A stretch of DNA of 11,267 nt from Candidatus Micrarchaeia archaeon (GTDB taxonomy: Archaea; Micrarchaeota; Micrarchaeia; CABMEP01), in assembly GCA_038886535.1 (NCBI GenBank), contig JAVZXS010000016.1, positions 1-11,267 on the forward strand. The letters run 5' to 3'. The position numbers are program-made. This document shows, piece by piece, positions 6,001 to 9,000 of this stretch (position 1 is the first letter of the stretch; each line of letters begins with the position of its first letter).

Positions 6001-9000
6001 AAGATTAAAAATTAAAAAGGTTAGTAGTCTTCGTCTTCGTATTCTTCTTCTTCGTCTATCCAATCGTCTTCAAATTCTTCCTCTTCATCTAGTTCTTCTT
6101 CCTCTTCTTCCTCTTCATCCTCATCTTCAAATTCTTCCTCTTCATCTAGTTCTTCTTCCTCTTCTTCCTCTAGTTTCTTAGGATTTCCTTTTGGCATATT
6201 CTCACCTTATAAGGTAAACTATCTGTGGTATATACATAATTAAGTATTAAAAATCTTTTTAATTTCACCAATTGGTTATATGTACTAACTAATCGATTTT
6301 ATATATTTTATAGTTTAATAGAATTTAATTTTATGTAGTCAACCTTTCTATTTTCTCTTACAATTGCAATAATAAGATTCTTTTTAGCAATTTGAGCAAC
6401 TCTTAGTAATCTATATATCTCCAATATAGTAATCTTTTCTCTCTCGGAAATCACTTCTATCAAGAAACTACTCTTTCCTTCGCCAGGTCTTATGCCTTTC
6501 TCATAAACCCTTAAAGGTGTTCCAAATCTATATCCAGATTTTAGTATATATCCTTTTTCTCTAAGATCTGAATAGACAATATATTTAATATCAATATCCT
6601 TTTCTTTCTTTATAAATTCTTTCATTAATTCTTTAAATTCAATTTTTTTATTCTTAGATTCTACCAATATTCTTTTGTTTTCTAACAAATACAATGCTTC
6701 ATATGGAGAAAGAATAAGTCTTTGTTCTTTGTCAAGAGTTCCATACCCTCTTTCCGTTAATACTTTAATTATTTTAGGATCTTCTTCAATAACAAAATTT
6801 TCCAGCAGATAAGCCATACAATCACACACCTTATCTGAAAGTCAGTGAACATTATAATCATCGTATATTAAGCTTTATAAATTTCTCTGATAAAATATAT
6901 TCGGTGATACTAATGGCAGAAGAAGAAATGAAAGAGGAGATTAAAGAGCCAGTTGAAGGAGAGGCAGAAATTGCTCCAGAAGAAGATGAGAGGCTTCCTT
7001 TCCCAACTGCAAGAGTTGTAAGAATATTAAAAGAAAATATGACAAAACCACATCAAATAAAAGCAGAAGTAAAAATAGCAGCGAATGAATTTCTCGGTGA
7101 AATCCTAAAAGATATTGCAAAAGAAATGGATAAGGAAGAAGTTTTTACGCTTTCAACTGAGCACTTCAATAAAGCAATAAAGAAATATAAAATGATAGAG
7201 TACCAGCAAAAGAGGATTGAAAGAATAAAGAAGCTTCTTGAGAAACAGAAGGCAGAAGTAGAAGAAGTAATAATAGAGATTGATCTTTCAAGAGATCTCT
7301 AAATTTGTAATCCTTTTTTATTTTAGTGGTTAAATGGCAGAAGAGAGAAAAAAGGACTACAGCTTTGAATTATTAGGCGCGTTAGTTCTTTTTCTTCTCT
7401 TAGCCTTACTCTGTTATTTTCATGTTATCTGCCCTCTTCCTTCTTGTCCTGATGGATTGGTTCAGTGTAATAACTGTCCTGGCAATTGTTGTTTGCCAGA
7501 TGGTAGCTGTCCATGTCCAGCCGGTTCAGTTCCATGCAGCACCTATTGTCCTCAAACACTAAATTGCCCTAGTGGGTGTTGCAATATCGATACATGTGCA
7601 TGCACTGCAACTCCACAATGCCCTCCTAATACAGTTTGGAGCGAATCAAGAGGATGTTGTCTGTTCACTTCAGGTCCAAACGCAGGGAAGTGCGCAGAAA
7701 TATGCAATGTTGATCTAAAAAGAGTGACATGTCCTATAAAGGGACTAGATGCATGTGATTCAAACAATTGCTGTCCATTAGGCTCATTGGGATGGGATGA
7801 TTCTCAAAAATGCTGTGTAGATTCATTAGGGACATGCATTCTAAGTTGCTTGATTGACAATACAAGAACCGGTTGTCCAACTCCTGGTGTAAAGGGATGT
7901 GATGCAACAGGCTGCTGTCCAAAGGATACATATTGGGACAGCAAGAAAGAATGTTGCGTTTATGAAAATGGTTTTTGCTATGGGGATCCCTGTGCAGATG
8001 TTCAATGCCCACCAGACCAAGTTTGTATCAATGGAAATTGCAAACTTCAAATCGATCTATGTGAAGGGGTTATTTGCGATGAAGGCCAAATTTGCGATCC
8101 TTTAACTAGGTTGTGCTCAGATCCATGTAAGAATGTGTTCTGTCCTGCAGGCCAAATATGCATTAACGGAAATTGTGAAACTGACCAATGTTACAATGTT
8201 CAGTGTCCAGCAGGCCAGATTTGTATAAATGGAAACTGTATAGATCAATGCGAAGGAAAGATATGTCCAGCAGGGCAGGAGTGTGATCCAGAGACTGGAA
8301 GTTGCAAAGATAAAAAGTGCAGTTCATCAACTCAATGCAGAATCTGTGATTTAGAACTTGGTGTTTGCGGGGGGATTCCAGGTTCAAGCCAATGCTCATC
8401 AGACGATGATTGTAAGAATGTCGAATGCCAGGCTTCAGGTACGTGTGGTATAAGTGGAGGGGTAGGTGGAAATGGAGGAGAAGGCTCTAATTTAGTGAGT
8501 TGCAATTATAAAGGGTCATTTACTCAGTGTCCTTCAGACATAATATGTTCAAATGGATGCGCTGAAGAGATAAAATGTGCAGATCTGCGTCTTCCTGAAG
8601 GTCAGTGCAAAGGAGTAGGAGAAACATGCAGCAGCTCAACAGAATGCTGCTGTGGAAACAGTTGTCAGATTGTAAACGGACAGGGATTCTGCTGTCCAGG
8701 TGGATTATGGCAATGCGGCTATCAATTCGAATAAAATAGATTTTTTAACAAAAACATTAGTAATTTATTTTATTATTTTTAGTTATTTTCTGACATTATT
8801 CTTTTAAGTATGTAGTCCTTATCAAATGGGATTAAATCTTCGTATTCTTGTCCTACACCTATAAATAATATCGGAACTCCGGTTGCTTTCTTTACAGATA
8901 TTATAGTTCCACCTTTTGCATCAACATCTAATTTTGTAAGTATAACTCCATCAATTTTTATTGCTTCATTAAACTCTGAAACCTGAATAAGCAATGCATT

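Follow-up and report, generated by a model that had tools for sequence, protein, structure and literature searches.

A single-unit EndA paralog without the catalytic His beside the epsilon2 tRNA-splicing endonuclease in Micrarchaeia

Two proteins of the tRNA-splicing endonuclease (EndA) fold are encoded by the genome of Candidatus Micrarchaeia archaeon GCA_038886535.1 (here G000), a three-unit epsilon2 enzyme on contig C1 and a separate single-unit protein of 169 aa on contig C16, whose gene lies in the window, that is, the whole stretch of 11,267 nucleotides that was analysed. The best explanation of the short gene is that it encodes a pseudo-endonuclease derived from an alpha4-type single-unit splicing endonuclease, and that early Micrarchaeia had both such a unit and epsilon2. 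As for what it does now, we see about even chances that the ancestral alpha-type gene, redundant after epsilon2, was kept as a putative non-cutting, basic RNA-binding helper.

In the textbook view, each archaeon has one of four types of splicing endonuclease, whose subunits fall into two kinds, catalytic and structural. Four EndA types, one per organism, are given in passages of PMC12397907, PMC3488258, PMC5829648 and PMC3239211, and the same one-type-per-organism scheme stands in passages of PMC2761253, PMC10485636, PMC12918454 and PMC6379350. A full-text search of open papers, figure-only supplements aside, found no second EndA in Micrarchaeota, and the figure-only trees of PMC5829648 (Fig. 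S9) and PMC12918454 (Fig. S6) could include sequences of the short-copy type. The fold and the ancestry of the short gene are known; what appears to be undescribed is the type of unit and its occurrence beside epsilon2. Here, roughly one in three genomes sampled from a DPANN class has another EndA-fold protein, which is under selection and, by its residues, belongs to neither of the two kinds of subunit.

The short gene and the epsilon2 gene in one genome

The short gene has both EndA Pfam domains (PF02778, E 5e-13; PF01974, E 8e-24), and its product aligned to the M. jannaschii alpha subunit 1a79 over residues 9-167 (E 1.3e-21). Its fold was predicted with AlphaFold2 at a pLDDT of 92.9, and the top Foldseek match for this model was again the M. 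jannaschii alpha4 subunit 1a79, with TM 0.89 and 34% identity. Residue roles were mapped through alignments together with the available passages of PMC3488258, PMC3239211 and PMC12397907, which gave the following features, all on the minus strand.

6308..6817, minus strand: single-unit EndA paralog, 169 aa (ATG at 6817, TAA at 6310-6308)
6623..6814, minus strand: tRNA_int_endo_N domain (PF02778; Pfam)
6335..6592, minus strand: tRNA_int_endo catalytic-type domain (PF01974; Pfam)
6503..6505, minus strand: Tyr105, equivalent of the catalytic Tyr (ARMAN-2 Y236), kept (alignments; passages of PMC3488258)
6473..6475, minus strand: Lys115 (codon AAG) at the site of the catalytic His (ARMAN-2 H251), His lost (alignment)
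6380..6382, minus strand: Lys146, equivalent of the catalytic Lys (ARMAN-2 K282), kept (alignments)
6344..6358, minus strand: L10 loop, residues 154-158, acidic D-x-E (ARMAN-2 D357/E359) lost (alignments; passages of PMC3488258)
6509..6541, minus strand: basic pocket K93, R97 and R103 (ARMAN-2 K224, K228 and R234), still basic (alignments; passages of PMC3239211 and PMC3488258)
6320..6331, minus strand: last strand (beta9) with the family-specific Lys163, and Ser166 (alignment; AlphaFold2 model)
6820..6890, minus strand: upstream region with a GTGA-type ribosome-binding-like site and an AT-rich TATA-like stretch (genus comparison)

The His, whose replacement the earlier note had reported, is not the only loss in the G000 protein. 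Where enzymes have the acidic D-x-E of the L10 loop, it has three basic residues and a single acidic one, and of the two residues that stack on bases the second is gone, with Ser166 at the site of the enzymes' Trp/Arg (ARMAN-2 W384); Ser116 and the first stacking Arg (Arg139) are further kept. The upstream region is near-identical across the seven genomes of the genus and separates the short gene from a divergent histone-fold gene, and from its signals it is a putative promoter.

The long EndA gene at C1:41086-42231 (minus strand) aligned to ARMAN-2 epsilon 4fz2 over 11-381 (E 7.3e-123), so both members of the pair that the earlier note had described were re-identified. It is an end-to-end homolog of the epsilon2 enzyme of Ca. 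Micrarchaeum acidiphilum ARMAN-2 (4fz2, 9w2k), in which three units are fused, and the triad, the ARMAN-specific loop (ASL Tyr-Lys), the L10 D-x-E and the terminal Trp are all present; its homology to 4fz2 suggests a homodimer with broad cleavage activity. The triad motifs of epsilon were complete in 37 of 37 copies read, and also in G118. Both loci occur in all nine genomes of G000's family (f1), as had been claimed, with short frames of 174-188 aa and long frames of 383-438 aa. Contig C16 is indeed no contaminant, since its gene order is common across the family, and in G007 and G002 a single contig carries both the short gene and epsilon, which argues against a binning error.

Residue signatures of short copies and control units

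Seventy short copies were aligned with 70 single-unit EndAs from outside and with both halves of 89 two-unit proteins, the latter taken as alpha'2-type from their architecture. In this one alignment the full triad was present in 3/70 short copies (G001, G002 and G118), in 65/70 outside enzymes (retrieved with a Tyr-containing pattern, so that their Tyr count is by construction), in 1/89 structural units and in 88/89 catalytic units. The corresponding counts, in the same order, were 8/70, 64/70, 88/89 and 0/89 for an L10 with D-x-E/D, and 57/70, 66/70, 21/89 and 85/89 for basic residues at both pocket positions 93 and 103. Neither triad nor acidic L10 was left in 61/70 short copies, compared with 2/70 outside enzymes, 1/89 structural units and 1/89 catalytic units. 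Judged by these residues, the short family is a unit of the catalytic position (pocket kept, L10 lost) without catalysis, a combination near-absent from the controls, and because triad and L10 are lost and the pocket is kept in most copies, it would count as neither an alpha nor a beta subunit. The G000 protein likewise falls, by its residues, outside the alpha4, alpha and beta EndA classes as defined.

These differences became clearer in comparison with single known systems. The alpha subunit of the alpha4 enzymes (M. jannaschii 1a79; DPANN alpha4) is, like the short protein, a single unit of about 170 aa with the same two-domain fold, and Tyr, Lys, the first stacking Arg (R139) and the basic pocket are common to both. 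The copies of G001 and G118 agree with it in all features checked, whereas the G000 copy differs in its Lys at the His site, its basic L10 and its Ser as second stacking residue, and the short gene stands beside a complete epsilon2. In structural units, that is, the (alpha-beta)2 enzyme's beta subunit (N. equitans NEQ261, 3iey/3if0) and the alpha'2 structural half, the triad is broken as in the short copies, often with Tyr and Lys left, and the K228 and R275 equivalents have decayed to a similar extent; however, structural units keep L10 and lose the pocket, the reverse of the short family, and no separate catalytic alpha gene was found in G000. Catalytic alpha-type units share with the short copies a kept pocket, the loss of their own L10 and a basic C-domain (median net charge +8 in catalytic units, +7 in short copies and 0 in structural units), but they have the triad that nearly all short copies have lost, and no gene for a beta partner was found in G000, either with profiles or in a Pfam search at E up to 1.

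At the His site, the 70 short copies have Arg (39), Lys (13), Glu (7), Pro (6), His (3), Gln (1) or a gap (1). All nine family copies were read, of which four had been aligned before, and they have Lys in G000, G005, G006, G007 and G008, Arg in G003 and G004, and His in G001 and G002, so the claimed replacement of His in the genus extends to 7 of 7 genomes. The claim that Tyr and Lys are kept stood as an observation, with the Y105 and K146 equivalents present in 9/9 family copies, but not as a sign of catalysis: the two occur together in 39/70 short copies and also in 30/89 structural units. Across the short copies Tyr is found in 52/70 and Lys in 57/70, and none of the triad residues is invariant.

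These residues bear on the idea that, at least in f1 and f16, the short protein is a nuclease with an altered triad (Tyr/His-Arg/Lys-Lys) that cuts some other RNA as a dimer, which we regard as improbable. G000 retains Y105, S116, R139 and K146 and is basic at position 97, Arg or Lys stands at the His site in 52/70 copies and His at the Tyr site in 11/70, RNases without His are known (e.g., RelE and colicin E5), and some A. fulgidus triad mutants reportedly have residual activity. However, every triad position is lost in some family, as Lys is changed to Leu or Met in f4, Tyr to Asn, Gly, Leu or Gln in 5/6 f19 copies, and the His site has Glu in f6; Tyr and Lys also persist in structural units, as counted above. 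Moreover, the best match of the G000 protein among two-unit models was to the N-terminal structural half, while those of G001 and G118 were to the catalytic half.

The lost L10 loop rules out a classic beta-subunit role for the short unit, and in G000 (a genome 88% complete) seven profiles over 11,882 six-frame ORFs gave no third EndA-like gene, the two known loci alone scoring below E 0.06. With its pocket kept, the short unit may still dock on epsilon. It might then be a partner with a socket only, whose basic pocket takes the L10 loop of epsilon, and the mixed complex would tune or block epsilon2 dimer formation, a reading that seems to us unlikely. It agrees with the distribution of the pocket, which is frequent in short copies and catalytic units and rare in structural units, with the presence of an intact epsilon wherever both genes were read, and with the position of the short gene about 0.5-2.6 kb from epsilon in seven f16 genomes and about 9 kb from it in two f4 genomes; competing subunit assembly as regulation was proposed for N. 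equitans in a passage of PMC2761253. Nevertheless, most copies have lost one of the two residues that pair with L10 by a salt bridge, the equivalent of K228 (Lys in 16/70 and Arg in 4/70), epsilon2 is self-sufficient and occurs without the short gene in f5 (0/94) and f10 (0/83), an opposite-strand gene lies between the pair in four of the seven close f16 cases, and the basic pocket residues could act on RNA instead. ESMFold2 with alignments gave epsilon plus the short unit a score of 0.00 in two runs, which was counted neither for nor against. If socket-only docking were true, the short protein would be a third kind of EndA unit and, with the same low likelihood, part of a fifth archaeal subunit arrangement; a third of Micrarchaeia would have a pseudo-catalytic subunit dedicated to the control of tRNA/rRNA splicing, G001 and G118 would run two working enzymes (alpha4 and epsilon2) or else a hybrid of the epsilon-alpha2 kind, and the steps from enzyme to regulator would be visible among living genomes.

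Distribution, ancestry and selection

A profile made from short copies found the short gene in 69/201 genomes of the class, and a broader profile found it in 136/401 Micrarchaeia genomes, each at least 70% complete and all of one class. The second locus in other families is therefore far wider than the earlier note had recorded, and the change in the short gene is not limited to one genus. Presence was nearly all-or-none by family, as follows (401-genome set).

f16 75/76, f4 29/30, f1 7/7, f19 10/17, f6 5/6
f23 4/5, f11 2/3, f18 2/2, one genome each in f34 and f36

No short gene was found in the 94 genomes of f5, the 83 of f10 or the 21 of f8, where the matches listed individually were all epsilon frames and 53 further matches lie in the same weak score band; the f5 and f10 tallies each take in one unpublished genome (G085 and G256), and no conclusion depends on either of these two alone. 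When ten genomes of such families were probed at E up to 0.1, G187 alone had a copy, which was very diverged (E 3e-9), so "absent" in a family means "not found". By epsilon closeness to ARMAN-2, with one protein per family, f5 scored 550 bits, f10 491, f16 437 and f1 413, and the short gene may have gone unreported because none was found in the 94 genomes of f5, the closest of these four families.

For the analysis of ancestry, a tree of 87 rows was built from 32/70 short copies, 13/37 epsilon alpha units, 26/70 outside single-unit EndAs and 16 other proteins. In this unrooted tree a branch (96/94) had all 32 short copies and five look-alike proteins on one side, separate from epsilon (100/100) and from sequences of Woesearchaeota, Pacearchaeota and TACK, and the intact G118 and G001 copies lay near the short-copy branch on short stems. 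The simplest reading would be vertical descent from a single-unit alpha that stood beside epsilon in the class ancestor, with later loss in several families. The class ancestor probably had such a unit, which bears on the origin of epsilon2. His loss takes three changes on the tree, and a single loss was not rejected (p-AU 0.23); a repeated loss is suggested by G001 and G002, which keep His inside family f1. Around the epsilon genes of 34 genomes, taken with 1.5 kb on each side (more in G030 and G035), no neighbours of the short-gene type were seen in f5, f8, f10 and f13, so that a position shared by the two genes is known from f16 and f4 and an origin by tandem duplication is not supported by the data at hand.

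The short gene is under purifying selection. Pairwise Nei-Gojobori analysis of seven unsaturated pairs within the genus gave dN/dS values of 0.10-0.23 (short gene), 0.01-0.03 (epsilon) and 0.09-0.20 (FtsY), which means that the short gene is relaxed relative to epsilon yet clearly constrained. The earlier note had offered an enzyme in decay as one possibility, and in the sense of loss of function this did not hold up: besides the FtsY-like dN/dS, the coding part of all 70 short copies was free of internal stops, the gene is retained almost completely in f16 and f4, and the family has conserved residues of its own, with Arg or Lys at the His site in 52/70 copies and Lys at position 163 in 59/70 (Glu in 57/70 outside enzymes). 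The best-kept positions are G108 (70 of 70 copies), R86 (67), R145 (61), R103 (60) and K146 (57). That the gene is a functionless redundant relic in slow decay, or a binning artefact, is thus largely refuted and has very little probability left. A relic would fit a dN/dS about 7-10 times that of epsilon, the failure to find the gene in most of the searched families, and the long branches, together with the very diverged G187 copy, but it does not fit a dN/dS far below 1, frames that stay intact at 21-35% identity, the near-complete retention within families or the conserved upstream signals. An artefact is contradicted by the contig common to epsilon and the short gene in several genomes.

The neighbours of the short gene recur across families. 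Just upstream of it, a bPH_2 gene is found in f16, f19, f28 and f34; downstream, families f4, f11, f18, f31, f34 and f36 have a double-zinc-ribbon gene; and a PF18894 (metallopeptidase-like) gene is close by in f4, f16, f19, f31, f34 and f36. Such company, which includes a bPH_2 membrane protein, and the decay of the RNA-stacking residues would suit a fold co-opted for a job outside RNA processing, such as DNA or protein binding, which we consider very unlikely. Against this, the best-kept residues ring the old active-site loop and the pocket, the ESM Atlas matches of the short protein that have a family assignment are exclusively EndA, and the neighbours in f1 are unlike those of other families.

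A putative role in holding RNA

The helper reading starts from what the G000 protein has lost. A working EndA has four units, held by beta9-beta9 pairing and by L10 in the pocket (passages of PMC6379350 and PMC2761253), and an epsilon L10 Asp mutant lost both dimer formation and cleavage (a passage of PMC3239211). His-to-Ala mutants of the ARMAN-2 enzyme (PMC3488258) and of the M. kandleri enzyme (PMC5829648) failed to remove introns, according to passages of these papers, and isolated EndA subunits form inactive beta9 homodimers (a passage of PMC2761253). Without L10, the G000 short protein would not build a four-unit, two-site enzyme, and without His, the general acid, it would not cut by EndA chemistry; with both gone, epsilon2 would be the enzyme that splices the introns of this genome. 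The short protein would most likely be a beta9-beta9 homodimer, like isolated EndA subunits, and its Lys/Arg-rich former active site (K107, R110, K115, R139, K145 and K146) may hold RNA uncut. Possible cargo would be bulge-helix-bulge precursors, or cut ends awaiting RtcB, and the role could be that of an accessory RNA chaperone or a guard of tRNA/rRNA processing, dispensable in several families.

Several observations stand against the helper reading. The main cross-subunit RNA contacts (equivalents of K228, R275 and W384) have decayed in most copies, with the R275-equivalent Arg left in 11/70, which suggests that bulge-helix-bulge RNA is no longer recognised in the canonical way. As the C-domain of catalytic units is just as basic, the charge of the short copies may be inherited. 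The kept pocket would suit a protein partner just as well, and the bPH_2, double-zinc-ribbon and PF18894 neighbours are not RNA-processing genes.

The description of an intron-rich lineage in the earlier note applies to G000, where 16 of 42 ARAGORN calls have introns (some of them miscalled), but it does not extend to the short-gene family, as in G100, which has the gene, 3 of the 41 tRNA matches listed (45 found) exceed 90 nt. A look at five genomes (150 of 200 matches listed) gave no sign that the presence of the short gene follows tRNA intron load. The tRNA-intron palindrome, searched with a loose pattern, was not enriched genome-wide in G000 (17 strict hits, against 15 in a Markov shuffle), and MFE folding of the tRNA intron region of the window gave z 0.28.

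The short copies with a complete set of features deserve separate mention. G001 and G118 keep the triad, the K228 and R275 equivalents, the stacking Arg and the acidic L10 beside an intact epsilon, and because all checked alpha4 features are kept in this way, they probably encode two working enzymes of different type. Set side by side, the copies would form a natural series from enzyme to pseudoenzyme: those of G118 and G001 are intact, those of G002 and G003 have changed in part, and that of G000 is without His, L10 and one stacking residue. The G000 copy also exceeds the cut-off of the TIGR00324 model "tRNA-intron lyase" (92.6 vs 59.6 bits), and because it passes this cut-off, annotation pipelines mislabel the short gene.

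Genes surrounding the short EndA gene

Genes found around the short EndA gene in the window of G000 (the genome under study) include the following:

6021-6197, minus strand: 58-aa protein, immediately downstream of the short EndA gene
6904-7302, plus strand: 132-aa protein, divergently transcribed
1684-5970, plus strand: 1428-aa protein, conserved in the family
7334-8734, plus strand: 466-aa Cys-rich predicted surface protein, conserved in the family

The 58-aa protein consists almost entirely of Glu and Asp, small ORFs resembling it occupy the same spot in most genomes of the genus, and this acidic product could conceivably be a partner of the basic short EndA protein. 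The 132-aa protein gave a weak match to the histone fold (PF00808, E 9e-4) and was strongly conserved in the family, with 79-98% identity and dN/dS of 0.01-0.08. Pfam search of the 1428-aa protein returned no match.

Short paralog and related EndA copies in other genomes

In genome G043 (locus L064:3004-4095, minus strand), a HAD-family hydrolase precedes the short paralog at the N-terminal end of a single open frame, through either a true fusion or an assembly error. Genome G128 carried two near-identical copies on separate contigs (loci L099 and L100), reflecting either duplication or strain mixture. Outside Micrarchaeia, two single-unit EndA homologs lacking the full Tyr/His/Lys triad (L188 and L192, in records labelled Bathyarchaeia) were placed apart from the short paralog family and are probably beta subunits.

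tRNA introns and RtcB of G000

The window also contains an intron-containing tRNA gene, which matched Rfam and was not picked up by the default tRNA scan of the window:

1492-1614, plus strand: tRNA gene with intron

ARAGORN called it Ser(TGA); visual inspection suggests tRNA-Leu(UAA), with an intron at 37/38 and a relaxed bulge-helix-bulge. Elsewhere in G000, several tRNA introns are made up of one to three copies of one AT-rich palindrome of about 23 nt:

C1:258097-258247
C2:86547-86672
C2:135525-135671
C2:198430-198608

The palindrome was present beyond the called tRNAs as well (C1:258 and C3:45073), and may represent a very small mobile element or repeat from which introns arise. The tRNA-splicing ligase RtcB of G000 (C2:11179-14202, minus strand; locus L209) is interrupted by an intein with a LAGLIDADG-like domain.
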